A stretch of 64,000 nt of DNA from Escherichia phage ECML-4. Below, piece by piece: positions 1,798 to 62,114 of this stretch. The position numbers and the translations under genes were made by a program. The notes under the pieces were generated by a model. That model made no database searches and had not been told where the DNA came from. It saw only the letters and a program-made list of their open reading frames with translations. The stretch is from sequence record JX128257; one strand, 5' to 3'. The first letter of the stretch is position 1; every line of letters begins with the position of its first letter.

Positions 1798-4700
1798 ATG
1801 CAATCTACAAATTTAAACCGTCGCCCGTATTGGGATGACTGGAATCCTGGGAAACGTTTTTCACGGATTCTTTTTCGTCCGATGCCTATCAAGGTTCAGA
1901 CTCGCGAACTGAACCAGATGCAGACTATTCTTCAGGATCAAATTGAAAAACTGGGCAACCATCTGTTCAAAGATGGTTCTATGGTTATCCCTGGCGGTCT
2001 GACGATCACCAATGCCGCAGTCTCTTTGAAATTCACTTTGGCGGGTGGTACTGAATTCACCGATCTGGAAGGTATTTCTGAACTCTACGTTTTGGGGAAA
2101 GACAATAACGCCAAAGCGCGTGTGTTGTCTCTTGAACGTGATCTGTCTGCTCCTGATACGATGTTGGCCATCCTTGAGATGACTGAAGCGGGTAATGCTG
2201 ACGGATTCCATGTTAACGATAATCTGTATTTCCAGACTTACGACGTGAATGATAATTTCATTCGTATTGGTTATGGGATCGCGGCTGCTGTAACTGGTTC
2301 TATCGTTGCTCGTATGACGAAAGGCGTTTACTTCATTCGTGGGATGTTCCTTGATGTTGATGACGCGACTCTCATCGTCGATAAAACTTCAAACACTTCT
2401 TCCCATCGCGTCGGGTTTAAAGTCACCGAAACCATCGTGACTGAATCTGAAGACGAATCCCTTTATTCAAACGCTCAGGGAACGATTAACTCCAAAGCCC
2501 CAGGCGCTCATCGTCTTCGAATAGATCTGGTCTTATCTCGATTTGATTATGATGCTGTGGTTGAAGACTTTGTTGAACTGGCCAAAGTTCGTGATGGTAA
2601 AATCCAGTCTATGGTGACTCAGTCCACCTATAATATTCTGGAAGACACGTTGGCTCAACGGACGTATGAAACCAACGGCGATTACAACGTTTCAACGCAT
2701 CAGATCGACATCCGCGAACACCTGAAAGTCAATAACAATGGTGGAGTATTCAATGCTGCTGATGGCGGCGACGAAAGTAAATTCGTGTCTGTAATGAAAC
2801 CAGGTATTTCCTATGTTCGCGGTCGTCGTATCGAAAACGTCGGGGAAGAGTTGGTGATCGTTGACAAGGCACGGGATACCGATGTCCTGAATAACACGCC
2901 TGTCGCAGTTGCTACAGGGAATTATCTGGTCACCAAGAACTCCAAAGGTGTTCCAGTAATATCTCGCACTGTGCGATACAAGTTATTGAACGCATCCGGC
3001 GCTACTCAAGCCACGGCGTTGTGTATATCCGCTGAACGCAATTCAACTGAATTCCGCCTGTACATGCGTGATTTAGTTGTGACTGGGGACGCGTCCACTA
3101 TCACCAAAGTGTCTTATGAAGAAAGTGGGATCACCATGTTTTCTGCTGAACTGGAATCCAACCAGTTTAACCAGAGTTCTATGGTAGACCTGATCTTCTC
3201 TCTTCCGGTCTTCGGTGTTAAAACATTAGCGCCAACAGGTTCCGTGGATATCAACTACACAGTCCTCAGAACTTATAAGGTGACGCTAGACAGCAGCGGT
3301 TCTGGTTCTATTTCAGCCCCGCTGGGATATAGTTTTTCCCCAGAATTTTCGTTGTACTCTGCAGCGAAATCAGATGGTTCGGAAGCGCAGTTCGATATCT
3401 CTGGCTCTTTGTCTTTGACTGGTTCTCCGGTCGGTTCGGCGCTGCAGATTTCTCTGGGTAGTGGTAATGCTAACCAGTCAATCAATTTGCTGGCGCTGAT
3501 GATTCGTACCACGGCCACAATCAAAACGAAGACCATCACTGAAACAACTGAAACAGTGACGTTCACATCACAGACCAGCCGTCCTTTGGCGAATCACGAT
3601 GGTTGGAAATTGGTATCGGTCAAAAACGATACTGGCGCAGACGTGACCTCTAGCTTCGTTCTAGATGGTGGACAGCGTGATGCAGGGTATTACAAGTCTA
3701 ACTTGTTATCCAGCGCTGGAGCAATCTCAGGGACGTATACAGTGGTGTATCAATACTTCGCCCACAGTTCCGGTGATTTCTTCTCTGCTGATTCGTATAC
3801 TTCGATGGATTATAAAGATATCCCGAATTATACATCTTCTACATCAGGCGCGGTGTACGGCCTGGCAGATAGTTTAGATTTCCGTCCGAAAATCACCAAC
3901 GGAACTTCTGACACAGATATGGTTCGTCCAAACACTGCAGTTATTCTGGACACAGAATATTATCTGCCGCGTATCGACGCGATTTATCTGGCAGACAACG
4001 GTGTGTTTGGTGTGGCTCGAGGCATCAGTTCTAATAATCTGGCTTCTCCAGCAATCCCAGCGAACGCCATGCGTTTGTATGAATTGTTGATCCCGCCGTA
4101 TACACCGAATATTGATGATATCCAAATTCGAACTATTGATAATCGTCGTTATACAATGCGCGATATCGGTAAACTGGAAACCCGTATTTCCAATGTTGAA
4201 TACTATACCTCTCTGTCACAGCTGGAATCTTCAGCGATGACACAGCAAGTGTTTGACCCCATCACGGGTAATCCTCGTTTCAAAAATGGTATTGCAGCTG
4301 ATCCGTTCAAAGACTTCCGGTTGATTGATGACTTGTCTGAAGATTGGATGGGTTCTATCGATACCGAAAACGGACGTCTACGCCCGTTTGTACAACAGAA
4401 CGTTGTTGACATGACTCCGGTTGGCTGGAACAAAGTGATGGATGGGATGGTGGTTTGTAATTACACACCTGAAATCTCAGTGAACCAAGAATATGCGACG
4501 ACGACGATCAACGTTAACCCGTATGCAGTATTCAATTGGGAAGGTTTCTTGAAGATTAACCCGACCACAGACTACTGGTTCGAAAACTATTATGTTGCCC
4601 CGCGTATTATTAATGAAACGATCAACACCCGTGGTACTGTACAAGAAGGTTCAGTGTACGGAACATGGCGGACTGTTTCTGTTTCTGATCGTGTTTGGGA

Positions 4701-8242: not shown

Positions 8243-8273
8243 TTATCAATTCCTCAAAAGAATTAATGATTGA

Positions 8274-8280
8274 CTAAATA
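8274..8280 (+). promoter_or_regulatory. Putative late promoter element CTAAATA
   Basis: ctAAATACCTTCAAAATTGAG, nearly identical to the element upstream of the sheath gene; 24 nt before the gp14 ATG. Confidence 0.45.
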
Positions 8281-12520: not shown

Positions 12521-12523
12521 TCA

Positions 12524-12530
12524 CTAAATA
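12524..12530 (+). promoter_or_regulatory. Putative late promoter element CTAAATA
   Basis: cactAAATATCTTTCAAATTGAG, 43 nt before the sheath ATG. Confidence 0.45.
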
Positions 12531-12572: not shown

Positions 12573-14468
12573 ATGGCAACTCAAAGCTTCAGCGTTGCGC
12601 CGTCCGTACAGTGGACTGAGCGTGATGCCACGCTTCAGACTTCTCCGTCCGTGGTTGTTCAGGGCGCGACAGTCGGCAAATTTCAATGGGGTGAAGTCGA
12701 ACTCCCAGTGCTGGTGACTGGTGGTGAGACGGGTTTGGTGAAGAAATTCTTCAAACCTAATGACAGCACTGCGACAGATTTCCTTGTGATTGCAGACTTT
12801 TTGTCTTACAGCTCTATGGCATGGGTCACTCGTGTTGTTGGTCCTCTGGCCAAGAACTCTGTCACCAAAGGCCAGACAGCCATCACGATCAAAAACAAGC
12901 TGGATTTTGAAACAGCAAGTCCGTCAGCGTCTATCACTTGGGCTGGTCGTTATCCAGGATCTCTGGGGAATGACATCGCCATCAATGTTTGTGACTCCGC
13001 TGGATTCCCGACATGGGAATTCCGTAACAACTTTGCGTACGCACCTCAGTCTGGTGAATTCCATGTTGTGGTTGTAGACAAAGTTGGGCGCATTACTGAC
13101 TCTGCAGGCGCAGTCGGTCAGGTTGACCGTATATCTGTTTCTGGCACGGCAACTGCAGCTGGCACCATCAGTGTGGCAGGTGAAGATATCGCATATCTGG
13201 ATACTGATACTCCGGCCACTTTGGCGACCAAAATTGGCGCGGCGCTGACGGCGCTAACAGATGTTTATTCTTCTGTCGTTGTTAAGTCTAACACTGTCAT
13301 CGTGACCCATAAAGCTATTGGTCCCCAGACAGTTACTGCTATTGTTCCAGATGATAAGGGGCTGACTGCAACCGCCGTGATTACCACTGTTGGTGCATCT
13401 GGTTCTATTATCGAAAAATACGAACTCATGCAGAACACACAGGGTTCCAAAAAGTCCGATGGCGCGAATGCGTACTTCAAAGATGTCATCAATGATACAT
13501 CAAATTGGGTGTACACCTTCGCTACCGCTCTGGCCGCAGATGTTGTTGAATTAGAAGGCGGCGTAGACGACTACAATATCAACCGTGTCGCGGCTATCCA
13601 AGTTCTGAACAATGCCGAAGCATATGATGCGAAGCCAGTATTTGCATACTGTGAAGAGTTGATTGAACAACAGGCATTAATCGACTTGTCTACCGAGCGA
13701 AAAGACACCGTTTCCTTCGTGTCGCCTTTGCGTGATACCGTGGTCGGCAACCGTGGCCGTGAGATGGACGATGTGGTCGCTTGGCGTGAAAGTCTGGTGC
13801 GCGACTCCTCCTATTTCTTCATGGACGACAACTGGGCATACGTGTACGATAAATACAACGATAAGATGCGCTGGATCCCTGCTTGCGGCGGTACAGCGGG
13901 TGTTTGGGCACGTAGTATTGAAATCGCGGGTATCTACAAATCTCCTGCGTTCCACAACCGTGGCAAATACAACAACTACAATCGAATGGCGTGGTCTGCG
14001 TCTTCCGATGAACGTGCCGTGTTGTACCGCAACCAGATTAACAGCATCGTGACCTTCTCCAATGAAGGTATCGTGTTGTATGGTGACAAAACTGGTCTGA
14101 CACGTCCGTCTGCTTTCGATCGTATCAATGTTCGCGGTCTGTTTATTATGGCAGAACAGAACATCGCTGCAATCGCCAAATATTACCTTGGTGAGAACAA
14201 TGATGCGTTCACTCGCAGTCTGTTCAGCAACGCTGTTCGTCCTTATATTCGCCAGCTGGCAAATATGGGCGCGATCTACGATGGTAAAGTCAAGTGTGAC
14301 GAAGATAACAACACTGCTGACGTTATTGCGGCAAACCAGATGGTCGCTGGTATCTGGCTGAAACCGGAATACAGCATTAATTGGATCTACTTGGATTTTG
14401 CTGCCGTTCGACCGGACATGGAGTTCAGCGAGATCGAGTCCGGCGGCGGTATCGTCGCGGCGTCCTAA
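12573..14468 (+). CDS. 18: Tail sheath protein gp18
   Basis: N-terminal GATVGKFQWG matches T4 gp18 (AALAGKFQWG); C-terminal block (GDKTGLTRPSAFDRINVRGLF) matches T4 (GDKTATSVPSPFDRINVRRLF); ATG with AGAAGGAA site. Confidence 0.85.
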   Translation: MATQSFSVAPSVQWTERDATLQTSPSVVVQGATVGKFQWGEVELPVLVTGGETGLVKKFFKPNDSTATDFLVIADFLSYSSMAWVTRVVGPLAKNSVTKGQTAITIKNKLDFETASPSASITWAGRYPGSLGNDIAINVCDSAGFPTWEFRNNFAYAPQSGEFHVVVVDKVGRITDSAGAVGQVDRISVSGTATAAGTISVAGEDIAYLDTDTPATLATKIGAALTALTDVYSSVVVKSNTVIVTHKAIGPQTVTAIVPDDKGLTATAVITTVGASGSIIEKYELMQNTQGSKKSDGANAYFKDVINDTSNWVYTFATALAADVVELEGGVDDYNINRVAAIQVLNNAEAYDAKPVFAYCEELIEQQALIDLSTERKDTVSFVSPLRDTVVGNRGREMDDVVAWRESLVRDSSYFFMDDNWAYVYDKYNDKMRWIPACGGTAGVWARSIEIAGIYKSPAFHNRGKYNNYNRMAWSASSDERAVLYRNQINSIVTFSNEGIVLYGDKTGLTRPSAFDRINVRGLFIMAEQNIAAIAKYYLGENNDAFTRSLFSNAVRPYIRQLANMGAIYDGKVKCDEDNNTADVIAANQMVAGIWLKPEYSINWIYLDFAAVRPDMEFSEIESGGGIVAAS

Positions 14469-17995: not shown

Positions 17996-18002
17996 AGTTC
18001 AA

Positions 18003-18009
18003 CTAAATA
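18003..18009 (+). promoter_or_regulatory. Putative late promoter element CTAAATA
   Basis: aaCTAAATATAG, 28 nt before the ATG at 18037. Confidence 0.4.
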
Positions 18010-19209: not shown

Positions 19210-19220
19210 ATTTCAGCTCA

Positions 19221-19227
19221 CTAAATA
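19221..19227 (+). promoter_or_regulatory. Putative late promoter element CTAAATA
   Basis: cactAAATACTG, 29 nt before the scaffold ATG. Confidence 0.4.
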
Positions 19228-23226: not shown

Positions 23227-23493
23227 ATGGCACGTTCAATCCACGATTTTAAAGACTCCGATATCCTGGCTTTCATTATGGATGGTCGCATGGTAGTTGT
23301 AAATGACGGTAACGACCGCCACAACACTACTCTGGTGATGAACAACGAAGTTGTTTACAGCAACACCCGCGAAGGCATGATTAAGATGCTTCAGAATCCT
23401 CATCGCTTCGGCGACAAAATGCACAAAGATTACAAAAGCCGCTGCCCAATGCTGGCACAACGCCTGGCCTGGGCAATGCAAAACGCCGCCTGA
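23227..23493 (+). CDS. Hypothetical early protein (88 aa)
   Basis: Preceded by the early promoter and an AGGAAATATATCATG initiation context. Confidence 0.4.
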   Translation: MARSIHDFKDSDILAFIMDGRMVVVNDGNDRHNTTLVMNNEVVYSNTREGMIKMLQNPHRFGDKMHKDYKSRCPMLAQRLAWAMQNAA

Positions 23494-43281: not shown

Positions 43282-43731
43282 ATGTTTCTTACATCCTTTA
43301 TTGACTGGATGAATATCATAAATGGCCTGAGGATTCCTGTTGGGAATCTTGGGCTTTCTCGTTCTTCTATGCCGCAAATCGATACCGACAAACAAGAAGA
43401 TTTTCACAAATATCTTGAAGACAACGGCGTGTCCATAGATGCTGCGCAAGTGCCCATCAAAATGCTTCGTCTTACCCAGAACGAAATCAATAAAATGAAG
43501 GTCTGGAAGATCATGAAGCAAATCAGAAATAAGAAACCTATGGGTAGAGTTTGGGTGTCTTCTGACAATTACGTTGTTGACGGTTCTCACCGATTTGTCG
43601 CTGCGTTGAACATGGATGGTAAACAGCGCATGAAGGTCTACAAAGTTGATTTGCCTGCGATGGAATTCGTAAAACTCGCCAAACAATTTCATGGTGTGCG
43701 GTACAGAACGGTCAGCGATACCCGTTTCTGA
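43282..43731 (+). CDS. ParB-like nuclease domain (ParB/sulfiredoxin fold) protein
   Basis: VPIKMLRLTQNEI...YVVDGSHRFVAAL resembles the ParB N-terminal domain with its DG-HR motif. Confidence 0.45.
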   Translation: MFLTSFIDWMNIINGLRIPVGNLGLSRSSMPQIDTDKQEDFHKYLEDNGVSIDAAQVPIKMLRLTQNEINKMKVWKIMKQIRNKKPMGRVWVSSDNYVVDGSHRFVAALNMDGKQRMKVYKVDLPAMEFVKLAKQFHGVRYRTVSDTRF

Positions 43732-43810
43732 ATACGATAGTTTATTGAAACCCTTTACTCAACATGGTGAGTCGACTATCATTTTATCCAATGAAATAAG
43801 GAGAATCACC

Positions 43811-44500
43811 ATGAAACGTTTAATCCTCGGGGTTGTGCTGGCAGGTCTGGCATTACCCGCCGCCGCCAAGCTGAACTCCACAGGTGACAAACTGTGGTCT
43901 GATCTTTCCTACTGTGCTGGGTTCTCCCAGGCGGTCGCTATCGACAAGTCCGGTTCCATAGAGAATTTCGCTGAACTTTGGAACACGGGTAACGTCTCCA
44001 CTGCTGTTGTTAATGCTGGGATTGAGTTCAACCGTTACAAACAGGGAGCCTACAACTTGAAAGGCTACCTGAATGACGATGAATTTAACCGAGGAGGCAT
44101 GGAGGCTGGCGATCTCATCATGACTGGCCGTATGGGCACACAAGGCCGTATGACTGTAAGGCAATGCCGTTCTCTCCCCTCTCCGGCATTACAGAAGGGT
44201 GTGCAAATCGGGCGTCGACATTTGGATCTGATCAATGATGGCAACCAATGCATCAAGGTGTTTGAATATAGTGCCGACCAAGAATCAGATCGACGTTTGA
44301 AAAAGGAATGGCGGACACGTGCCCTTGGATTGAGAGCATGGCTCGTAGAAAACGATTATTACTACGAGGATCGTGTTCAGAACGGATTGAAAGATCTTTC
44401 TACTAATTTGTCTGTCAATCTAGACGACCCAAGGCTTTCGCGTGAACTCAAGCAAACACGGATTGACTGCGACAATATGATGAAGGAGAACGAAAGATGA
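43811..44500 (+). CDS. Secreted/periplasmic protein with cleavable signal peptide
   Basis: AAGGAGAA site; MKRLILGVVLAGLALPAAA then AKL is a typical Sec signal; several Cys in the mature part. Confidence 0.5.
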   Translation: MKRLILGVVLAGLALPAAAKLNSTGDKLWSDLSYCAGFSQAVAIDKSGSIENFAELWNTGNVSTAVVNAGIEFNRYKQGAYNLKGYLNDDEFNRGGMEAGDLIMTGRMGTQGRMTVRQCRSLPSPALQKGVQIGRRHLDLINDGNQCIKVFEYSADQESDRRLKKEWRTRALGLRAWLVENDYYYEDRVQNGLKDLSTNLSVNLDDPRLSRELKQTRIDCDNMMKENER

Positions 44501-44817
44501 GAAACATAATATTCTTGTTATTCTTTTCTATGTTGGCATCATTCCAAGTTGTGGCAACTCCGGCTAGCAAATTGAATATCTGTGCGGCCTGGTTGTCTAC
44601 TTATCAACAATTTCACCCTGATGATAAAGATACATCCATCCTTTTATCAGATTATGAAGGTGAGTTGAAACGCCTTGATCTCTACAGCGTGGATCAAATA
44701 GAGAATGCTTTGGATTTGCCAATGATGGAGTCCGCTGCCGACAATAGCAAACAGACGATCAAAGATCTGACTATGTGTCGGGAAATAGCGACTAATTTCG
44801 TTGGAAATCAAAGATAA
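44497..44817 (+). CDS. Small secreted protein with signal peptide
   Basis: MRNIIFLLFFSMLASFQVVA signal; start overlaps the upstream stop (ATGA); AAGGAG site. Confidence 0.45.
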   Translation: MRNIIFLLFFSMLASFQVVATPASKLNICAAWLSTYQQFHPDDKDTSILLSDYEGELKRLDLYSVDQIENALDLPMMESAADNSKQTIKDLTMCREIATNFVGNQR

Positions 44818-47463: not shown

Positions 47464-47669
47464 TCGGATTAATTCGTTACCTGTTCATATTCGTAATTTC
47501 AACATTCATTTTATTTTTCTTTTTCAAATACTTGAAAGAGACTAAAATCTACCGAAGTAAACGTTGGCGCAAACGGGTGAGGGTAACTTTCCTGCTGCTG
47601 ATTTCTTCGGTTACAATAACCGCACTCACATTGGGTGCATATATCTACATTTTTGAAGGGGTACATTGA
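47460..47669 (+). CDS. Small two-TM membrane protein (holin-like or NfeD-like partner)
   Basis: Two hydrophobic helices separated by a basic loop (KYLKETKIYRSKRWRKRVRV); overlaps both neighbours. Confidence 0.4.
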   Translation: MIGLIRYLFIFVISTFILFFFFKYLKETKIYRSKRWRKRVRVTFLLLISSVTITALTLGAYIYIFEGVH

Positions 47670-48460
47670 TGTTCAAGAAATTGGTGTTCGGTGCAATTAT
47701 GGTTCTGGCTGCAAGTCTACTTTCTGGTTGTGGTGGCGTTATCGATGAAGGTAATGTCGGCGTTCGCACCCAATGGGGTGAAGTAGACATGAACCCTGTA
47801 ACAGCGGGGATCTACACCAGCTTTGTTTCAAGCGTGGATGTTTACACGACCAAAGAAGCCGTTGTGAGTCTGACTAAAATGACGCCAAAGGCCAAAGACA
47901 ACCTGACTCTGGAAGACTTGGATGTGGATGTTTATTACACACCCAATGTCGCAAAGGTTCCGTGGTTCCATACCAAATTTGCTGGCCAGAGCGCCGAACT
48001 CGATGATGGCACGATAGCGGTGGGTTTCAATCTAGTTAAAACTGCTGCAGCATCTTCTTCGATGGACGCCGTTTCTTCTCTTGATTCTATGACAATTCAC
48101 ACCCAACGTGCTGAATTAGAGAAGATGATTAAAGACCGCACTCAGCAACAATTAGAGACTGCAGCGCCTGGCATGTTCACAATCACACGCGTGTTGGTCA
48201 AAAAGGCACTGACGGATCCTTCCATTGAGCAGTCTATCCGTGATAATGTTATGGCGGACAAACGATTGGATACGGCAAGAAAGAACGTTGAAATTCGCGA
48301 GCAAGAAGCCCAAGCGAACCAGAAACTGACCACCTCGCTGACGCCTGAATATCTTCAACATGAATATAACATGGTATTACAATCATGCGCCAACAGTGGA
48401 AAATGTACTCTGATCGTTGACGGATCCGGCTCAGGTAAAATGCTGAACGTCGGCAAATAA
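47669..48460 (+). CDS. SPFH (band-7/prohibitin-like) domain lipoprotein
   Basis: Signal peptide with lipobox (MFKKLVFGAIMVLAASLLSGC); IDEGNVGVRTQWGEV...NLTLEDLDVDVYY and an Ala/Glu-rich helical tail fit the SPFH fold. Confidence 0.55.
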   Translation: MFKKLVFGAIMVLAASLLSGCGGVIDEGNVGVRTQWGEVDMNPVTAGIYTSFVSSVDVYTTKEAVVSLTKMTPKAKDNLTLEDLDVDVYYTPNVAKVPWFHTKFAGQSAELDDGTIAVGFNLVKTAAASSSMDAVSSLDSMTIHTQRAELEKMIKDRTQQQLETAAPGMFTITRVLVKKALTDPSIEQSIRDNVMADKRLDTARKNVEIREQEAQANQKLTTSLTPEYLQHEYNMVLQSCANSGKCTLIVDGSGSGKMLNVGK

Positions 48461-53889: not shown

Positions 53890-56223
53890 ATGAGCAACGT
53901 AGATCTATTATCAAAATTTGGTTCGCTGTTGAAAGAAGCGGACGCTCCTGTTATTGTTGAAGCACCATTTGAAATCCGTGGGGATATTACTCACAAACTG
54001 ACTTTCCATCGTGGTCGCGCTAAGAACTTTCGTTCTATCGGTAATGAATTCATGGAAATTGATTACCAACGCAATTCGGCAACCTTGGTTACATCCGATG
54101 ACAATGGCGCTGGTAAATCCACCATGCTTGTCTGGCTGCTGTTCTTCGTTCTGTACAACGACACGTACAGCAAGAAAGAGAAGAAAGCCGGATTGGTTAA
54201 CTCTCAAAACAAAAAGGAATGCGTGGGTGAAGTTGAGTTCTCAACTCGCGGTAGTGAATGGAAAGTCCGTCGCGGTATCAAACCAGATTTTGTAGAAGTT
54301 TATCAGATGGTGGAAGGAGAGTGGAAGCAAGTCGTGAACGATGCGGCCAAAGCTGATATGAACAAGTACATCGTGAATCTCATCGGTGTGGACCAGAAGA
54401 TGTTCGAGAACTCTTTGGTTCTGGGCAAGGAGAAGTTTATTCCTTTCACAGAGATGTATACTGCTGACCGCCGCGCCATGGTTGAAACAATTTGGGACTT
54501 GGGTTTCTTCAGCCTGATGAATGAGGATGTTAAAGCATCTATCAAGGCGGTAACGAACGAACTCACGACGGTCACCAATGATTACGCCTTTCATGATGTG
54601 AATCTAAAAGGCCAGCAAGCGCAGTTGGAACAGATCAATAATTCCAATGCGATGATTCAGCAACAATCTGCGGATATCCTTGTCCAAGAGAAGGAACGTC
54701 TGAATAGCCTGAATTCAGATATCGGCGCAGTGCAGGAACAACTGACAGAGTCCCGTGCTCAAGACTCTAAATTGGAATCAGAATTATCAGAAGTCCGTAA
54801 TCGTCTGAACGCTGAAATGAAGGTGGATATCGATGCCATCAATGACGAGTATTTTGCCAAAATTCAAGCGGTTCAGGATGAGGCTGATACCAAGGCTGAA
54901 GACTATGAACGTATCGAGGTGTCTGATGGCGAACGTTCATTACAAGAAATTCGGGAGAGAATGGCGGTAGTCGCGGAACGTAAAAATGATCTGGTCAGCC
55001 AACGGAATGCTAACCTGGATGAACTGAACAAAGCATTAGCGCGGCGTCAGCAGGGTGAGAACTTCCGTATCAAATTCGTAACAGAAATGGAAGGACATGA
55101 ATCTGCCATCAAACGTTTCCACGATATGGGCACTTGCCCTACGTGTACGCAATTAGTGTCGGACGATACCAAATCACGCATTGAAAGTCAATATTATCCG
55201 CAAATCAGTGAACTGACTGACAAGATTCTTCAGGTTGACACAGCCCTAGAAGAAGTTAATTCCCTGATTGAGAATTACAACGTCAAAGATTCAGAATTAT
55301 CTTCTCAGATTTCGGTTGTTGACAAAGAACTGGATGCTTTGCGCAATGAAATCCGAGAAGCGGAATCAGCGATTGCTGCATTAAAACGCGACATCCAAGG
55401 ATTCTATGATGTGGCAGCTGTTGAGAAAACATCTTTACAGCGGGAACAACAGTCCAAAATTAACGATATCCTCAAGGCCGTAGACACCCGTTACGAAGAT
55501 ATCACGACGTCAATCCGTCAAGCGCGTGAGCAGCTCTCTAAGAGCATCAACGACACGACTGATAAACTCACCAGCCTGAAATCACGCCGTGCCCCTCTGG
55601 AGGCATCCATTGCCGATTTAGAGCGTAAATTGGCGGTTAAGCCGACACCAACTGACGCCCTGGAAGAAGAGATCGCTCGCATCACGGCGTTAATGGAAGA
55701 TCTGAATGCGCGGCGCGTAGAGTTGGATGAGAAATTGCAAGACCTGAACCATCTTCTGTTCTTCCTAAAAGATGATCAGACCAAGGCTCGAATTATCAGC
55801 CTGTATTTGCCTTTCCTCAATAGTAAAATAAACGAGTATCTTGAAGCACTCAATATGTTCTTGGATATTGCTGTTGATGATACATTTGAAATCACCATGA
55901 GCGCTGCAGGTCGTAAAGGGCAAAGCATCTTCTCATTATCTACTGGTCAGCGTAGTCGCCTGAACCTGGCTGTGACATTAGCTTTACGCGATGTTGCAAA
56001 CCTCAAGGCGTCGGTGCAATGTAACCTGTTTGTGTTAGATGAAATCCTTGAGAACATGAGTGAGCGCGGCGTACAAGAATCGGTTGAGATGCTGAAGCAT
56101 AAATTTGGCGGGAACAATCTGTTCGTTATCAGTCAACGCGAGCAGGAATTCCAAGAGTATTTCCAACACAACATCCGTTATGGTCTGCGTAATGGCATGA
56201 CTGAAGTGATTAAGAAGGATTGA
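53890..56223 (+). CDS. 46: Recombination ATPase subunit gp46 (Rad50/SbcC-like)
   Basis: Walker A DDNGAGKST, long central coiled coil with a CPTC zinc hook, C-terminal signature LSTGQRSRL and Walker B LFVLDE. Confidence 0.85.
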   Translation: MSNVDLLSKFGSLLKEADAPVIVEAPFEIRGDITHKLTFHRGRAKNFRSIGNEFMEIDYQRNSATLVTSDDNGAGKSTMLVWLLFFVLYNDTYSKKEKKAGLVNSQNKKECVGEVEFSTRGSEWKVRRGIKPDFVEVYQMVEGEWKQVVNDAAKADMNKYIVNLIGVDQKMFENSLVLGKEKFIPFTEMYTADRRAMVETIWDLGFFSLMNEDVKASIKAVTNELTTVTNDYAFHDVNLKGQQAQLEQINNSNAMIQQQSADILVQEKERLNSLNSDIGAVQEQLTESRAQDSKLESELSEVRNRLNAEMKVDIDAINDEYFAKIQAVQDEADTKAEDYERIEVSDGERSLQEIRERMAVVAERKNDLVSQRNANLDELNKALARRQQGENFRIKFVTEMEGHESAIKRFHDMGTCPTCTQLVSDDTKSRIESQYYPQISELTDKILQVDTALEEVNSLIENYNVKDSELSSQISVVDKELDALRNEIREAESAIAALKRDIQGFYDVAAVEKTSLQREQQSKINDILKAVDTRYEDITTSIRQAREQLSKSINDTTDKLTSLKSRRAPLEASIADLERKLAVKPTPTDALEEEIARITALMEDLNARRVELDEKLQDLNHLLFFLKDDQTKARIISLYLPFLNSKINEYLEALNMFLDIAVDDTFEITMSAAGRKGQSIFSLSTGQRSRLNLAVTLALRDVANLKASVQCNLFVLDEILENMSERGVQESVEMLKHKFGGNNLFVISQREQEFQEYFQHNIRYGLRNGMTEVIKKD

Positions 56224-56225
56224 TC

Positions 56226-56534
56226 ATGGGAAGTCTGATCCGTGTATCAAAGAAATCCAAGGGCGCTGAAAAGCGCCTGTACAAAGCCGTTCGCCTGATG
56301 ATCCTCTACAAGTACACTGCTGAGAATCAGTGTTGGCGAAAGAAAACACGTGCCCGATATCAGTTAGCTCAGTACAATATGAGGCGTCATGTCGTCCGGT
56401 TGGCGTTGAAGATCGCGGGGAATTACAAGTATTGGACTTGTGAGGCTGTTGGTAGCCGCAAGGCTATTGACCTCATAAATGACCGGAATCTATCTTTTCT
56501 GGTCAATCTATCGGATTATGAGGACATGTCGTGA
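56226..56534 (+). CDS. Hypothetical basic protein
   Basis: AAGAAGGA site then ATG; Arg/Lys-rich. Confidence 0.35.
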   Translation: MGSLIRVSKKSKGAEKRLYKAVRLMILYKYTAENQCWRKKTRARYQLAQYNMRRHVVRLALKIAGNYKYWTCEAVGSRKAIDLINDRNLSFLVNLSDYEDMS

Positions 56535-56860
56535 AAGTCGTCCACTTCAAGAAGGAGCCATACGACGTCTACATTGGGCGGCCTGGCAAATGGGGTAATG
56601 ACTTCGAAGTCAAAGACTATGGGCGCGGCGTTTGTATCGAGTTATTCGAAGACGATTTGTATGTGCGTTTGATTGAAGGGGAAATCACCGAGGATGAACT
56701 CCTTGAACTGGACGGAAAGATTCTAGGGTGCTGGTGTAAACCACGCCCCTGCCACGGGGATGTTTACGTCAAAGTGATCAATCGTATTAAACTATTCCGT
56801 AAGTTGGGTAAATCTTTTACTGAATATTTGAGACAAACATATGTCAGAAGAGAAAGATGA
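56531..56860 (+). CDS. DUF4326-like protein
   Basis: VYIGRPGKWGN...LGCWCKPRPCHGDV matches the DUF4326 signature (IGR...GN, CWC-P-CHGD). Confidence 0.5.
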   Translation: MKVVHFKKEPYDVYIGRPGKWGNDFEVKDYGRGVCIELFEDDLYVRLIEGEITEDELLELDGKILGCWCKPRPCHGDVYVKVINRIKLFRKLGKSFTEYLRQTYVRRER

Positions 56861-57125
56861 AATACAGATTGCTTGTGATATCGCTGTGGAATTATGGAAT
56901 CAGCGAAATAAACATCATCAGGTAGCATTGACACCAAAACGTTACCTAGAGCAAGGTGGGTTGATCGTTGTTGACGCCGTCTTGGGTTTCAACAAGTACA
57001 CAGATATGCAAATCCTCCAAGGGGATTTCATAGTGGCATCAAAATCAGCATGGGACGATCCTATGGAGTTTGTCTACGGCTGGTTAGAGTGTATTGAGGA
57101 ATCATACCATCTGATCTACGAATAA
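56841..57125 (+). CDS. Hypothetical small acidic protein
   Basis: ORF overlapping the DUF4326 gene end; hairpin follows. Confidence 0.35.
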   Translation: MSEEKDEIQIACDIAVELWNQRNKHHQVALTPKRYLEQGGLIVVDAVLGFNKYTDMQILQGDFIVASKSAWDDPMEFVYGWLECIEESYHLIYE

Positions 57126-57221
57126 GGTGAAGGGCACTAAATATCAAGTGCCCTTTATCTTTTAACCCTGTCAGGAGGCTCAATCGAGCTGCAAGTCGAC
57201 AAACACATAAGGAACGCCATC

Positions 57222-57839
57222 ATGACGATGACAACGTTGAAGGCCATGGCCTTGTCCGTGACCTTTACCATTGCCAGCGGGAGTGTGCACGCTTCCCAAA
57301 GTACCACCCAATGTGATTACGAATTTTCTGATCAGCAACTTTCAACTATGGCCACTGCCTATCACATAGGCAAACAGCAAGACCTTGGTTTCACCCTAGC
57401 CGCGATATCATGGAGGGAAAGCCGCGCCGGAGAAGATGTGGTATCCATGCGGAATAACCTGAAATCGGCTAATATGGGGGCATTCCAAAATCGCGTCCAA
57501 ACCGTTGGGAAACGGGAGGGATGCAAAACACAGAAGTGTTACGCCAACGTGGCGATTAAATTGCTGGTCAATCAAGAGTACGCAGCCAATGCAGCCCTTG
57601 ATGAAATGAATTTCTGGCTTGGGTATCATAACCAAAACATCCGCAAATCGCTCTCCTCTTACAATGCCGGTTTCAGTCGTAACCAAAAATCCAATTCATA
57701 CGCTGCTGATGTCGTGAAGAAGGCTAAATATCTTCAACGATGTGTGTCTTTCAAAGGCATGGCAATAAACCCGAAGGTCGACCCAGGAGTGATCGCCATG
57801 AATAAGCGCACGATTGAGAAACTCAAGAGGACCCGATAA
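57222..57839 (+). CDS. Lytic transglycosylase (SLT domain) with N-terminal signal or signal-anchor-release-like segment
   Basis: Catalytic region WRESRAGEDVVSMRNNLKSANMGAFQ and SYNAGFS (SLT family E-S...GxxQ...YNxG); N-terminal weakly hydrophobic Ala/Ser/Thr-rich segment MTMTTLKAMALSVTFTIASGSVHA. Confidence 0.55.
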   Translation: MTMTTLKAMALSVTFTIASGSVHASQSTTQCDYEFSDQQLSTMATAYHIGKQQDLGFTLAAISWRESRAGEDVVSMRNNLKSANMGAFQNRVQTVGKREGCKTQKCYANVAIKLLVNQEYAANAALDEMNFWLGYHNQNIRKSLSSYNAGFSRNQKSNSYAADVVKKAKYLQRCVSFKGMAINPKVDPGVIAMNKRTIEKLKRTR

Positions 57840-58477
57840 TGAATATCACTCCATCTCAGACCGGATACGAGCACTTAATGGTGTTTATTGCGATTCAGGG
57901 GGCAAAAGAAGGCATCATCAGTTCTGAATATTCTGGAACGATGCGCCTGGCTGATTATGTTGCTCCCGAAGCGTTTATCAAGAAATGTATCGACGCATGG
58001 TGCCTTTATGCTATCGGCACGTATCCTACTCCTCCGGCAGGTGAGCTACTGTTTACCGTTCCGACCCCAGCCGCTGGCGACACAGACGCGATCTTTGCTG
58101 ATATGTTGGCTAAAGGTTATCTGGCATATGATAGTGCTCACAATGTCTATGACTTCTCGGCGTTGAATCGTATCTTCGGATACACCATAACATCCGAAGC
58201 CAATATTCCCGATTATGGAATTCTGGCATGGGGTATTGACGGTCTGGGCGCGACATATGCATCTTCTGATGTTGGTCCTGTATTGATTGACACAGGTGTG
58301 ACGATGGAGCAATACATGTCACAATTCCCTCAGCATAATGTTACCGGAAGCGATATCATTATCGTCTATCCTGGTTCCAATGCGTTGTCCCGCCTGGTGG
58401 ACGGCTGGAAGCCTCAGCTGAAGGACATCGTTGCTGGAATCAGATTTCACATCCCTGTCGTCAATCCCACACCTTAA
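57839..58477 (+). CDS. Hypothetical protein (212 aa)
   Basis: Start overlaps the transglycosylase stop (TAATG), suggesting co-expression. Confidence 0.4.
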   Translation: MNITPSQTGYEHLMVFIAIQGAKEGIISSEYSGTMRLADYVAPEAFIKKCIDAWCLYAIGTYPTPPAGELLFTVPTPAAGDTDAIFADMLAKGYLAYDSAHNVYDFSALNRIFGYTITSEANIPDYGILAWGIDGLGATYASSDVGPVLIDTGVTMEQYMSQFPQHNVTGSDIIIVYPGSNALSRLVDGWKPQLKDIVAGIRFHIPVVNPTP

Positions 58478-58505
58478 AATAATTCAATAAAAGGGGCAAA
58501 CGCCC

Positions 58506-58534
58506 CTTTACTTCTTCAATAACTACCGTATAAT
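58506..58534 (+). promoter_or_regulatory. Early promoter, sigma70-type (-35 CTTTAC, 17-bp spacer, -10 TATAAT)
   Basis: Perfect TATAAT; sequence block homologous to the promoter at 23149; preceded by a terminator hairpin GGGGC-aaac-GCCCC. Confidence 0.55.
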
Positions 58535-58582
58535 TCTAAACATAAGCAGTACGACACCAACTTGAAAAGCAGGAACTACATC

Positions 58583-58951
58583 ATGACCAAAACTGAATTG
58601 AACAACATTCTAAACGTTGCTGGGTACAAGAATATTCGTCGTGGGAACAATAAAATCGCGCGTGACCGTAGCAACAAAATCATCAAGGGGTTTCCCCTGT
58701 GTAAAACTGGTCCGCTCGATATCAGCAACCCGTCCAAGCGCTTGTTTAAAGACTTATTACGTGAACTCGGCACTAAAGGCCTGGTGCTAGATAAAAAGGA
58801 TGACCTGGTTGACTTTGGCATCGCGGTTATGAAGATTGCCAAATTCAAAATAACTCTGTGCGTACAGACCATTCAGACATATGACTACTCTGAAGGCCGT
58901 GACCCGAATTACGAAACAAAATATGTCAACGTAAGGATTGAAGGGTTATAA
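58583..58951 (+). CDS. Hypothetical early protein (122 aa)
   Basis: CAGGAACTACATCATG initiation context downstream of the early promoter. Confidence 0.4.
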   Translation: MTKTELNNILNVAGYKNIRRGNNKIARDRSNKIIKGFPLCKTGPLDISNPSKRLFKDLLRELGTKGLVLDKKDDLVDFGIAVMKIAKFKITLCVQTIQTYDYSEGRDPNYETKYVNVRIEGL

Positions 58952-59032
58952 TACGAATATGCGGGGGCTTGATGCCCCTTTCTTTTCGCTAATTAAGGAA
59001 AACCGCACCGATTTATTATCAGGAGAATTACA

Positions 59033-61432
59033 ATGGCCATCCAATCTTTCTTAAATTTCCTTGACGAGTCCAAACAATTGGACGAAGCGTTTAACTCCGC
59101 TCCATACGAATTGACTTTCGGCAAGAAAAATGCTGGTGACATTTTCTTCACGTTCGTAGACGAAGATGAAAAAGAATTCCGCATCCAATTTTATACCCCG
59201 CAGGGGCTGGGCAAGAACGTTCGTCAGGTCTTCATAGGCCAGAAACGTGGTTCAACCTATCCAGACGCAATCGGTCGTTTCAAAAACCCAATGCGTGTCA
59301 TCGCATCCATGATCGAAGCGACTAAACAATTCATGGCGACACCGCTGGGTAAAACCATTGATGGGTTTGCGATTAACTTCTCCAAGAAAGCTCTAGAACG
59401 CGGAACGACGTTACTCCCAAAAATTATTCGTCAATCTGGTCTGAAGCAGAAACTCAACGTCATGGATCTGACTTATACCCCAATCCCTGACCGTGCCTTC
59501 GTATGGGTTGTGCGTAAAGGCAAGGATCCTGCTCAGGTATTTGATGGTCCGAAAATGAAAGGCGTGACTTGGGACGATCCAGACAAAGTCGGAGACGTTC
59601 CGGTTCAGAACAACACCCCTGATGTAGGAGCAGCGCCTTCCCCAAACACAGATTGGAATATCTCCGTCATGGCGAAGTCCAACGGTATCTTCAGTTCTGT
59701 TGTGAAGGTAGTCGGTGCGAACGATGTGACTCTAAGTTCCAATGATCTGGCCATCATGGTCAAAGATGGCGCGATGGCGAAGATTGCCCGCACTCAGTCG
59801 ATCGCTCAGGTGACCGTATTCAACAAAGAATATGTCGGTCGCGGTGAAGTGGATCGCAAAATCATGGCAGCTTCTGACCGTCAGGGAATGGGATGGGAAC
59901 TGAAGTCTGGTGGGAAGATCGTAGCATACGTCGAGTTTGGAATAGGGGCTACTGCTCCCGTCGACATGAAAACTCTTCCAAAAACCGGTTCTATGGATGA
60001 TCTGCGCAACCAGGGTTATATCGCCCGCATCTTGGGCATCGTCGATACATATGCTCCTCAGCAAGTCGGCATGTATGCTGGTGAAAAATTGACTCGGGTT
60101 GGTGCTGGCAAATATCGAACTTCTGGCGGGTTGGATATTCAAGTCTATTTCTGGGGGATTACTAATGGCAAACTTTCTGTAGAAGTGGTTTCTGATTTAT
60201 CTGGCAATGAACAGCTGCTGCTGGAAGGCGACGTGAAAAACGCTGCTTTTGAAATCGTCAGTGCGATATCCCGTGCTGCTGATTCTCAGTTCAAAGGTGA
60301 AGTGGAATGTCGTGTTGTTCCGATCAACGGTGCCCCATACCCGATTCAAAAGGTTTCCCGTTCCCAGGGTTATTCTTATGTCGATTGTATTTCGTTTACC
60401 TTGAAGATCGCCGATGCATTGTTAAATCGTTTTACTCTGGGTAAGGCAGTCAAACTCGATCTGATAAAAGAGTTCCCTCGAACGACGTTTATTGTTCGTT
60501 ATGACTGGCGCAGCAAAGATACTCTGATGGTCCAGTCTTCTGATGGGAAGACTATCTTCGGCGAAATCAACACAAATTCCAGTGATAACGCTGTCATCAC
60601 TGCGAACCTGAAAGCCCCAAGCAATGCGAAGATATTTGGTGAAACCGTTCATGGGTTCTCTGTGGCTTGGGACTTCCAGTTCCCTGCGGGTAGCCAGCTG
60701 CAAGCCGCACGGTTCGTTACGAACGTGACTTACGACTTCGATCGTAATAAGGCCAACATCACGACCATGCTGACCGAAAATGGCCGAAATGTAGTCAATA
60801 GCAGCGGATATGACATTCAGTTATCTGTCAAGTCTGTGCAAGATGCATTGAATGAGACTTCACAACGCCTAAAAGACGCTGCGGCTCAATTGAGCCATCT
60901 CAGTTCATCAAACTATAACCCGAACAAGCTGTTTCTGAATGATATCACCGTCAGTAAGTTTGGTGCAATTATGTTCCAAGACAAAGATCTGGCGCAGTCC
61001 AGAAACCGCACTGCAGTCATTGATGCCCTGGCTCGCGCCAAAGACCAAGCTGCTGGGGGCAAGAACAGCAGCGATCTGGCCACATATTCCGATTCCATCC
61101 GCAACAGTGCTCCCAACGGACGAGATCTTGATTGGCAGGTATACGTGACCAATAGCGGCGCAGTTCTTAACGTCGATTGGAGTATCACCTTCCGTCGCAA
61201 CACAACCGAAGGTGCATATCGTGAGTTCAAAGATCAGATTAACCGTGCCAACCAGTACCTGCAAACGGTATACAACGATGCGAAGGCGAAGGGATACAAC
61301 CCGACCGAACCGAATCTCATGACTTTGGATAGCGCCCGTCAGTCGGACGAATGGGCTATGAGCAATGGTGACAGTGCTTACAGTGAATATGAACAATCAC
61401 TGGGTGGTAATCTCCAGATCCGTCTGAAATAA
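59033..61432 (+). CDS. Large hypothetical protein (799 aa)
   Basis: CAGGAGA site; preceded and followed by terminator hairpins; no motif recognised. Confidence 0.45.
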   Translation: MAIQSFLNFLDESKQLDEAFNSAPYELTFGKKNAGDIFFTFVDEDEKEFRIQFYTPQGLGKNVRQVFIGQKRGSTYPDAIGRFKNPMRVIASMIEATKQFMATPLGKTIDGFAINFSKKALERGTTLLPKIIRQSGLKQKLNVMDLTYTPIPDRAFVWVVRKGKDPAQVFDGPKMKGVTWDDPDKVGDVPVQNNTPDVGAAPSPNTDWNISVMAKSNGIFSSVVKVVGANDVTLSSNDLAIMVKDGAMAKIARTQSIAQVTVFNKEYVGRGEVDRKIMAASDRQGMGWELKSGGKIVAYVEFGIGATAPVDMKTLPKTGSMDDLRNQGYIARILGIVDTYAPQQVGMYAGEKLTRVGAGKYRTSGGLDIQVYFWGITNGKLSVEVVSDLSGNEQLLLEGDVKNAAFEIVSAISRAADSQFKGEVECRVVPINGAPYPIQKVSRSQGYSYVDCISFTLKIADALLNRFTLGKAVKLDLIKEFPRTTFIVRYDWRSKDTLMVQSSDGKTIFGEINTNSSDNAVITANLKAPSNAKIFGETVHGFSVAWDFQFPAGSQLQAARFVTNVTYDFDRNKANITTMLTENGRNVVNSSGYDIQLSVKSVQDALNETSQRLKDAAAQLSHLSSSNYNPNKLFLNDITVSKFGAIMFQDKDLAQSRNRTAVIDALARAKDQAAGGKNSSDLATYSDSIRNSAPNGRDLDWQVYVTNSGAVLNVDWSITFRRNTTEGAYREFKDQINRANQYLQTVYNDAKAKGYNPTEPNLMTLDSARQSDEWAMSNGDSAYSEYEQSLGGNLQIRLK

Positions 61433-61451
61433 ACCATAGCCCCTTCGGGGG

Positions 61452-61458
61452 CTAAATA
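61452..61458 (+). promoter_or_regulatory. Putative late promoter element CTAAATA
   Basis: gCTAAATACATC directly after a terminator hairpin, 22 nt before the ATG at 61480. Confidence 0.4.
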
Positions 61459-61479
61459 CATCAAAATCCTTAGGAGATC

Positions 61480-62052
61480 ATGATGAAACCGTTTATCGAA
61501 TATTTTAAAGAACAAGCCCAGCAGCCGCAAACTCATGGCGGTATACAAGGCAAAAGTGTAACCATCACTAAACAAGCCGATGGAACACAATGGTGCTCCG
61601 GCGCTACCGTGACCCAGATCACTCCTGACAATCAGGCCGATGTCTATAATCTGGAATTGACTAATGGCAACACTACTAAAGTGAAACTGACGCCGGACCA
61701 GGTTCATGCGGTTTCTGTGGGCAAAGATGTTGTTGCCGTTCATGACGGATACGAATTCTTCTTTGGTAAAGACGCCAGCAAAGGCCAGGTCACAGAATCC
61801 TATGCTCAAGAACTAGCGAACATGGATAAGATGATCGGTAAAGCGCTGGGTGTCGGCAAGTCTCGCAAAAGCGGTCGCACTGAATATGAATATTCCGGCA
61901 TCCCTGGTATTGGCAAGGCCGTGGCAATCGACTTCGGCGGTGAAGATGACCCATATGTGATCGTTACTGTTGGTGGCAAGCAACAAGATATCAGTAAGGG
62001 GAAAACCCTGGCCGCGGATATCGCCAAGTACATCGGAGTGAAACCGATATAA
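61480..62052 (+). CDS. Hypothetical protein (190 aa), probable late gene
   Basis: TAGGAG site; late-promoter-like element upstream. Confidence 0.4.
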   Translation: MMKPFIEYFKEQAQQPQTHGGIQGKSVTITKQADGTQWCSGATVTQITPDNQADVYNLELTNGNTTKVKLTPDQVHAVSVGKDVVAVHDGYEFFFGKDASKGQVTESYAQELANMDKMIGKALGVGKSRKSGRTEYEYSGIPGIGKAVAIDFGGEDDPYVIVTVGGKQQDISKGKTLAADIAKYIGVKPI

Positions 62053-62114
62053 TTGTGGTGAGAAATGAAGATCCCCCTAAATACAGGGGGATTTCTTTTT
62101 CTGAGGAAACAATC

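Follow-up and report, generated by a model that had tools for sequence, protein, structure and literature searches.

The window analysed here, 64,000 nucleotides (nt) of Escherichia phage ECML-4 (sequence record JX128257), carries at 57222-57839 on the plus strand an open reading frame (ORF) for a 205-amino-acid protein of the SLT lytic transglycosylase type, and the locus raises the question whether this protein is the enzyme by which the phage lyses its host. In the first-pass annotation, made from the sequence alone, the protein was proposed to be an exported endolysin, either with a signal peptide or of the signal-anchor-release (SAR) kind. Our analysis indicated that the gene does not encode a hidden endolysin of the exported kind. 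The product was considered probably to be a secreted accessory lytic transglycosylase of the T4 Vs.1 type, made late together with a DUF7270 protein. The biology of the locus is ordinary and the identification is already in the literature, since the sequence, the SLT or lysozyme-like nature and the Vs.1 homology are all on record. What is added here is the refutation of the endolysin reading, an explanation of the RegB misannotation, family-wide evidence of export and a description of the clade-specific regulatory architecture. The secreted transglycosylase family, present in about 2,100 phage records with T4 among them, is still without an assigned function.

The observation of the ORF itself was confirmed. 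It begins with ATG, encodes 205 amino acids including the catalytic motifs, and is preceded by a Shine-Dalgarno sequence AGGA (57210-57213, plus strand), which was read directly 8 nt 5' of the ATG and is kept in the alignment of relatives. Salmonella phages of the genus Kuttervirus (Vi01-like, Ackermannviridae), FrontPhageNews and vB_SentM_sal1 among them, matched this region of the window at about 98.5% (98-99%) identity, and a protein identical to the product is already present in public databases. In FrontPhageNews and sal1, a separate 264-amino-acid "endolysin / N-acetylmuramidase" was found about 7.5 kb 3' of the SLT gene, which corresponds to about 65,390-66,184 in window coordinates, about 1.4 kb past the window end. 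It combines a PG_binding_1 domain with a PF11860 Muramidase domain (E 3.8e-58), starts with MAILKLGNRGSEV and has no signal peptide, and the same endolysin was found in 217 related phage records. A gp5-like tail lysozyme with OB and CHAP domains is encoded in the same near-identical genomes. A canonical cytoplasmic endolysin elsewhere, one of the outcomes that the first-pass annotation had named as refuting its proposal, is present in these near-identical relatives. The Vs.1 ortholog coexists with an endolysin in T4 as well, and the proposal of a signal-peptide or SAR endolysin was not supported.

The family of the protein was determined by profile and pairwise searches. The match to phrog_600, which is annotated with unknown function, covered positions 4-176 of the 178 in that profile (E 2.3e-59), and BLASTP against T4 Vs.1 (AAD42672.1, UniProt P13311) gave 32% identity over 173 amino acids (E 3e-20). 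Judged by homology, the SLT ORF is the Kuttervirus ortholog of T4 Vs.1, and the annotators of CBA120 and KVP40 had earlier linked their orthologs to Vs.1. Only 25 close relatives were returned by a word-indexed search; when 1.84 billion representatives were searched exhaustively with a profile, 609 relatives were obtained, 351 of them at E<=1e-10 and mostly of 160-200 amino acids. By tblastn, the family was detected in 2,103 of 50,697 phage records, including T4-like Straboviridae, Felix O1-like Ounavirinae, KVP40, and myophages of Aeromonas, Acinetobacter and Vibrio. No homolog was found by tblastn in 72,556 plasmids, and an origin from a plasmid or conjugation system was rejected on this result. 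In a 2022 paper, phrog_600 was called a lysozyme-like hallmark of Kuttervirus, additional to an endolysin and an Rz spanin (PMC9409062). T4 vs.1 was not identified as essential, and "some role in cell lysis" was proposed for it (Nolan et al. 2006, PMC1524935); nothing on vs.1 function beyond that study was found in the literature. T4 Vs.1 has been classed as early at the RNA and middle at the protein level (PMC9697503 supplement).

The T4 and Kuttervirus proteins are alike in several respects. They are homologous across the whole mature domain, fall in the same size class, and share the E-S, G-x-F-Q-N and S-Y-N-x-G motifs and an N-terminal signal peptide. In both cases the phage is a large virulent myophage with an endolysin of its own and a tail lysozyme besides. 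The two proteins differ in genomic placement. In Tevenvirinae the family gene is vs.1, located between regB and vs, and in T4 it belongs to the early regB-vs.1-vs cluster, whereas this synteny, which homology does not require, was not found in the window, where the gp46/47 operon lies 5' and the DUF7270 gene 3' of the SLT gene. The Kuttervirus gene follows a putative terminator and a late-like promoter, is coupled to DUF7270 and lies in an island of virion genes, unlike T4 vs.1. The h-region of the Kuttervirus protein is also the weaker one, and this protein has four cysteines (C31, C101, C106 and C174) and a basic C-terminal extension of about 30 residues (approximately residues 175-205) that is specific to the clade, while T4 Vs.1 has no cysteine and lacks the extension. 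In the Felix O1-like Escherichia phage mistaenkt, the Vs.1-family gene (3432-4025), labelled "endoribonuclease", was found directly 3' of rIIA-rIIB and about 1.1 kb 5' of an i-/o-spanin pair. This placement possibly hints at a lysis-related role of the family.

The SLT catalytic signature named in the first-pass annotation (E-S...GAFQ...YNAG) was read at E66-S67, G86-A-F-Q89 and Y147-N-A-G150, and the lytic transglycosylase-type identity was borne out by the family profile, the fold model and the conservation of the motifs. Among 37 diverse family members, E66, Y147 and G150 were present in all 37, S67 in 36, G86 in 34 and Q89 in 29. The codon of the predicted catalytic Glu66 lies at 57417-57419 (plus strand), within the mature domain of GH23/SLT-type fold (residues 25-205; 57294-57836, plus strand; 20.4 kDa, isoelectric point 9.7). 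An AlphaFold2 model based on the family alignment reached a mean predicted local distance difference test (pLDDT) score of 85.5, in which residues 29-205 were confident and residues 1-28 were disordered with scores below 50, and a lysozyme-like alpha-helical fold was found. The matches of this model in BFVD by Foldseek were Vs.1-type phage proteins. A PDB search with the single sequence gave no match and a family profile was needed: the profile of 37 sequences matched EtgA, the small transglycosylase of the type III secretion system of enteropathogenic Escherichia coli, with E 3.5e-6, and E66 of the family was aligned with the E in the AWNES motif of EtgA. That the catalytic motifs stay (near-)invariant while the sequences diverge by more than 30% speaks for an enzyme that is still active, and the protein is apparently a divergent, catalytically competent enzyme of the GH23/SLT type. 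The residue that we take to be Asp60 of EtgA is not conserved, being N84 in the SLT protein and Ala in T4 Vs.1, and the absence of an equivalent suggests a single-Glu transglycosylase mechanism.

Small Sec-dependent specialised transglycosylases like EtgA are the closest mechanistic analogues of the SLT protein; other specialised enzymes of secretion systems are IagB, IpgF, VirB1 and P19. Membership of this class fails on genomic context. The SLT gene does not lie in a secretion-system cluster, and the SLT protein has no known localising or activating partner. Among host lytic transglycosylases, Slt70 and MltE of E. coli and Slt, MltF and MltD of P. aeruginosa showed only 13-18% identity, and their superhelical, LysM or lipid-anchor modules are absent from the SLT protein.

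A Sec signal peptide was predicted at residues 1-24 (MTMTTLKAMALSVTFTIASGSVHA, followed by SQ; 57222-57293, plus strand), consisting of an n-region with K7, an h-region of 15 residues and a c-region with V-H-A before S. The weakly hydrophobic, Gly/Ala/Ser/Thr-rich N-terminus described earlier was confirmed, with a best 12-residue Kyte-Doolittle (KD) value of 1.63, 58% G/A/S/T and an uncharged run of 24 residues, and it was recognised as a trait of the clade: the median KD value and G/A/S/T content were 1.77 and 58% in the Ackermannviridae clade versus 2.52 and 25% in the remaining family. The export-like character of the N-terminus was likewise supported, in prediction, by a hydrophobic segment with an AXA-like site in 123 of the 136 family members with a complete N-terminus. 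The N-terminus of T4 Vs.1 reads MRKALLAGLLAISMMAHS up to the site and SEH after it. In the window protein the site is ASGSVHA before S, and V/A-x-A before S is kept across the Ackermannviridae clade. C31 and C174 co-occur in 23 of 37 diverse members, which fits a disulfide expected in the periplasm. The hydrophobic segments of P1 Lyz and phage 21 R are about 20 residues long; a 15-residue core followed by a conserved V/A-x-A site favours a cleavable signal peptide over a SAR anchor. The N-terminus is probably a Sec signal peptide cleaved after Ala24, and cleavage between A24 and S25 would expose the neo-N-terminal peptide SQSTTQCDYEFSDQQLSTMATAYHIGK.

The comparison with known SAR and signal-peptide endolysins (P1 Lyz, phage 21 R and Lys44 of Oenococcus phage fOg44) showed likeness in two points, namely the holin-free Sec route to the periplasm, which the SLT protein would share, and the SAR-like composition of the Ackermannviridae N-terminal segment. 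The SLT protein differs in having the SLT/GH23 fold and not a T4-lysozyme-like one, a shorter hydrophobic core and a conserved AXA site. Each of those enzymes is also the only endolysin of its phage, with genetic linkage to holin or pinholin genes, while the Vi01-like group has a separate canonical endolysin.

The regulatory architecture of the gene suggested late expression. The upstream ORF ends at 57125, and a hairpin with a T-rich 3' side directly follows it (57124-57161, plus strand; folding free energy -22.6 kcal/mol, z -5.28, 0 of 200 shuffles as stable). This hairpin is likely the intrinsic terminator of the upstream recombination-gene operon and is common to CBA120, LIMEstone1 and Taipeivirus cp19; a "terminator" feature is listed in the records of relatives somewhere within the same match of about 4.7 kb. 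It was missed by a consensus terminator scan because the extended stem absorbs the T-run. The loop of the hairpin contains ACTAAATA (57136-57143, plus strand), a late-promoter-like motif comparable to T4 TATAAATA, and an RNA initiated there would have its 5' end within the 3' arm and thereby avoid being terminated. The SLT and DUF7270 genes appear to form a late two-gene unit, with a promoter that would lie within the terminator of the preceding early/middle operon.

In the window, six exact copies of ACTAAATA were found versus 1.59 expected, and none of 100 shuffles reached six. All six are intergenic and on the plus strand (1757-1764, 8273-8280, 12523-12530, 18002-18009, 19220-19227 and 57136-57143), and the five other copies precede VrlC-like, neck, sheath, post-portal and prohead-core genes. 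The relaxed form CTAAATAY occurred 12 times versus 3.3 expected, with further plus-strand sites at 14465, 28068, 41445, 57724, 61452 and 62077, and it is likewise found ahead of the genes for virion proteins at 61480 and about 62100; the sites of both forms are mostly located 15-40 nt 5' of structural genes. The gp55-dependent T4 late consensus TATAAATA was not enriched (one copy versus 1.8 expected) and was dropped in favour of the de novo motifs. Homologs of gp55, gp33 and gp45 are encoded by the phage, and in FrontPhageNews the variants TTAAATAC and ATAAATAT stand 5' of the canonical endolysin and of the tail lysozyme. The motif matches CTAAATAcCcc, which has been described in these phages as a regulatory motif under conservation (PMC7283392). 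The late promoter of Vi01-like phages was still unidentified according to Kutter et al. (2011), and the ACTAAATA/CTAAATAY motif is a good candidate for a gp55-type promoter of this kind. The hairpin, the motif and the 5' untranslated region are nearly identical across Kuttervirus, Limestonevirus and Taipeivirus. Within 57080-57260, the 96-nt intergenic region and the first 30 or so coding nt are near-identical in LIMEstone1, cp19 and CBA120, the proteins of which are about 81-83% identical. A regulatory RNA structure in this conserved region around the start was rejected (z 0.62), and so was a sigma-70-like site at 57196-57223, which runs into the start codon and is no better than expected by chance.

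The 3' neighbour is a 212-amino-acid DUF7270 protein (57839-58477, plus strand; PF23934 over its full length, E 1.3e-124). It had been described earlier as a co-transcribed ORF overlapping the SLT stop; the overlap, of one base (TAATG), was seen directly, and co-transcription is suggested by the hairpins and the motif. The same one-base overlap is kept in LIMEstone1, phiMAM1, ViI and CBA120, and in every member of the Ackermannviridae examined DUF7270 was coupled to the SLT gene. DUF7270 is predicted to be translationally coupled to the SLT gene as the second and last gene of the operon. A G+C-rich hairpin 3' of it (58486-58512), a terminator-like scan match, is the likely end of the two-gene unit, and a promoter-like scan match of sigma-70 type for the next ORF was located at 58507-58534. 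Three late-promoter-like motifs were found in the loop or 3' arm of G+C-rich terminator hairpins (57124-57161, 61437-61459 and 62069-62094). With this promoter-inside-terminator layout, a few late virion genes (57.2-62.5 kb) seem to be insulated as a small island, which is flanked by the gp46/47 recombination genes and the primase gene.

On the favoured reading, the SLT gene and DUF7270 would be transcribed late from the ACTAAATA promoter inside the terminator hairpin. The product would be exported by the Sec pathway and cut by signal peptidase after Ala24, giving a basic soluble enzyme of about 20 kDa in the periplasm without a holin, and would fold there with a probable C31-C174 disulfide. 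Murein glycan strands would then be cleaved via Glu66 in an accessory remodelling of the cell wall, and terminal lysis would be carried out by the separate cytoplasmic endolysin of PG_binding_1 and Muramidase domains together with the spanins. Candidate purposes of such remodelling are the conditioning of the sacculus before lysis, aid to trans-envelope complexes such as spanins, and superinfection effects.

Several points weigh against this reading. The Pfam SLT (PF01464) score was 20.9 bits, 0.4 bit short of the gathering threshold of 21.3, which is passed by the relatives T4 Vs.1 (25.1 bits) and P0029 (24.3 bits), and the top Foldseek matches in PDB, all of them lytic transglycosylases, were weak (E 5e-3); the protein is therefore a divergent GH23/SLT member. 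The signal peptide was called by heuristic scoring of hydrophobicity and an AXA-like site rather than by a dedicated predictor, and given the unusually weak h-region of the clade, export efficiency or cleavage could be atypical. Late timing would follow from the motif, while the T4 ortholog is early/middle, and neither an Ackermannviridae transcriptome nor a biochemical or genetic study of any family member was found in the literature. In addition, the ortholog Sajous1_211 (gp211) gave 31 spectra in CsCl-purified Sajous1 virions (Harris et al.), which was unexpected for a purely periplasmic protein.

The Sajous1 spectra also speak for a second explanation, namely a virion-associated peptidoglycan-cleaving enzyme. 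The Vs.1 gene would have moved to the late virion-gene island and its product would sit on or in the particle, possibly docked by DUF7270 or by the clade-specific C-terminal tail, and would aid wall penetration at the next infection. The spectra exceeded those of the tail lysozyme (20; Harris et al.). The SLT gene, with its late-promoter-like motif, also heads a cluster whose other members (DUF7270 and the 799-, 190- and 117-amino-acid proteins) belong to the virion in Sajous1, in LIMEstone1 and, going by the labels in its record, in ViI. The translational coupling to DUF7270, the weakened signal segment of the clade and the C-terminal extension absent from T4 Vs.1 are consistent with the same explanation. 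However, the 39 virion proteins of LIMEstone1 include ORF085 (DUF7270) and ORF078-082 and not the SLT ortholog ORF086 (PMC3296691), and in the ViI record the label "phage associated protein" is carried by the neighbours Vi01_096c, 094c, 093c and 092c and not by 097c. The first-pass annotation had named virion association as an outcome that would overturn its proposal; it was supported by the Sajous1 spectra and not by the LIMEstone1 list or the ViI labels. The signal peptide, the AXA site and the cysteine pairs all suggest a periplasmic location, whereas tailed phages assemble in the cytoplasm; a gp5-CHAP hydrolase is already on the virion, and the T4 ortholog is early/middle. A basic, abundant late periplasmic protein could also co-purify with envelope debris held by the tailspikes. 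On balance, a functional association with the virion was judged unlikely.

Known virion-borne transglycosylases and lysozymes differ from the SLT protein. The N-terminal SLT domain of T7 gp16, PRD1 P7 and T4 gp5 are domains of large structural proteins or components of membrane virions, without Sec signals, whereas the SLT protein is a free protein of 20 kDa with a signal peptide and was undetected in two other virion proteomes. It is a stand-alone protein of 205 amino acids with a signal-peptide-like N-terminus, not a structural-protein domain devoid of an export signal. The 22.75-kDa "ORF85" in the LIMEstone1 table was considered as the SLT protein (22.78 kDa). This was rejected, since a mass of exactly 22.75 kDa, the table value, was computed for ORF085/DUF7270 and the record marks ORF085 as structural. 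DUF7270 showed a complementary pattern, being a LIMEstone1 virion protein and "phage associated" in ViI and undetected in Sajous1, where the transglycosylase was detected. The 799-amino-acid protein (59033-61432; phrog_3867, no Pfam match), called "tail completion protein" in some records, gave 196 spectra in Sajous1 virions and ranked there in the top five proteins by abundance. LIMEstone1 has it as two separate ORFs (081/082), and in relatives its length ranges over 2,388-2,721 nt.

A combination of the two explanations was regarded as distinctly improbable. An ancestral early periplasmic Vs.1 would have been repurposed in Ackermannviridae by a move behind a late promoter into the insulated virion-gene island, coupling to DUF7270, weakening of the signal and gain of a new basic tail, with part of the protein on the particle, which it may reach by escaping export or by binding to virions at lysis. 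If this were true, an enzyme bearing a Sec signal would lead a double life in lysis and entry.

The original proposal, a holin-independent signal-peptide or SAR endolysin responsible for terminal lysis, was found very unlikely. It drew on the apparently exported muralytic fold with intact catalytic motifs, the SAR-like N-terminus (58% G/A/S/T, 24-residue uncharged run) and the late-promoter-like motif. In the literature, neither lysin nor holin was identified in CBA120 by Kutter et al. (2011), and the phrase of Nolan et al. on vs.1 and cell lysis is in keeping with it. However, the canonical endolysin is conserved in relatives with a late-like motif of its own, and the family coexists with dedicated endolysins such as T4 gene e, the Felix O1-like and KVP40 copies being placed among non-lysis genes. 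An intact vs.1 does not enable T4 e mutants to lyse, and T4 Vs.1 is made early/middle without causing lysis. The short hydrophobic core and the conserved cleavage site also stand against a SAR anchor. No holin or pinholin adjoins the SLT gene, the hairpin-bounded unit of which holds only this gene and DUF7270, the latter a LIMEstone1 virion protein. No match to holin families was obtained among the eight genes scanned (53,890-61,432), and no holin was identified in these phages.

The accompanying suggestion that the lysis genes may be dispersed was supported. An Rz-like spanin of 106 amino acids (44497-44817; phrog_3843, E 3.9e-58) overlaps an i-spanin ORF of 269 amino acids (43691-44500; phrog_4260, annotated as i-spanin in FrontPhageNews), and the distance from the pair (43691-44817) is 13 kb to the SLT gene and about 21 kb to where the endolysin would lie. 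A SPFH/Band 7 lipoprotein at 47666-48460 (PF01145, E 3e-13; phrog_200 "lipoprotein") has the same length as the endolysin, 264 amino acids, and is unrelated to it; its ortholog gave three spectra in Sajous1 virions.

It was judged highly unlikely that the protein is a non-catalytic or regulatory periplasmic factor with a lysozyme-like fold only (murein-binding, superinfection-exclusion or lysis-inhibition, like T4 Spackle or RI). In favour of this reading, functions of this kind are served in T4 by several small proteins with signal peptides (PMC7677548, PMC8385771), CBA120 shows lysis inhibition for which no components were identified (Kutter et al. 2011), and the Felix O1-like gene adjoins rIIA/rIIB near spanins. 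Against it, the catalytic motif triad is complete and (near-)invariant, and no similarity to Spackle or RI appeared in any search made.

The records of relatives name the SLT ORF "transglycosylase SLT domain protein", "lysozyme", "lytic transglycosylase" or "hypothetical", and most commonly "RegB endoribonuclease". This widespread GenBank label is corrected here as wrong for a Vs.1-type gene. RegB identity was rejected, since the best BLASTP match to T4 RegB had E 0.095 over 6 residues. Pfam (E<=0.01) returned SLT and no RegB family, NCBIfam gave nothing at E<=1, and no RegB-like protein was found in the Pfam and phrogs scans of the eight genes at 53,890-61,432. The label arose because annotation slipped from the neighbour gene of vs.1 in T4-like genomes. 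As "RegB site-specific RNA endonuclease" it is carried by the orthologs of Maynard, Marshall, FrontPhageNews, Sajous1, LIMEstone1 (ORF086), Coodle and moki and by others, and it entered a published virion-proteome table, in which the protein was filed under "DNA/RNA processes". The DUF4326 protein at 56531-56860 (E 3.7e-22), named "NrdA.1" or "ribonucleoside-diphosphate reductase subunit" in several records, looks like another case of a transferred label.

Some minor observations concerned gene calls and early promoters. In CBA120, an alternative internal start was flagged by the annotators at position 3148, equal to Met76, and the 130-amino-acid ortholog of Erwinia phage Bue1 is annotated from Met76 only, which would drop both the signal peptide and the catalytic Glu; this short form probably reflects an artefact of gene calling. 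After hairpins, the sequence ggggtttacttcttc(a/t)a...tataat was observed to recur, 5' of small ORFs at 23227, 42427 and 58562 (for example at 58500-58540). It probably represents the early sigma-70-type promoter class of these phages, and the motif available from the literature for comparison is TTCAAT[N14]TATAAT.

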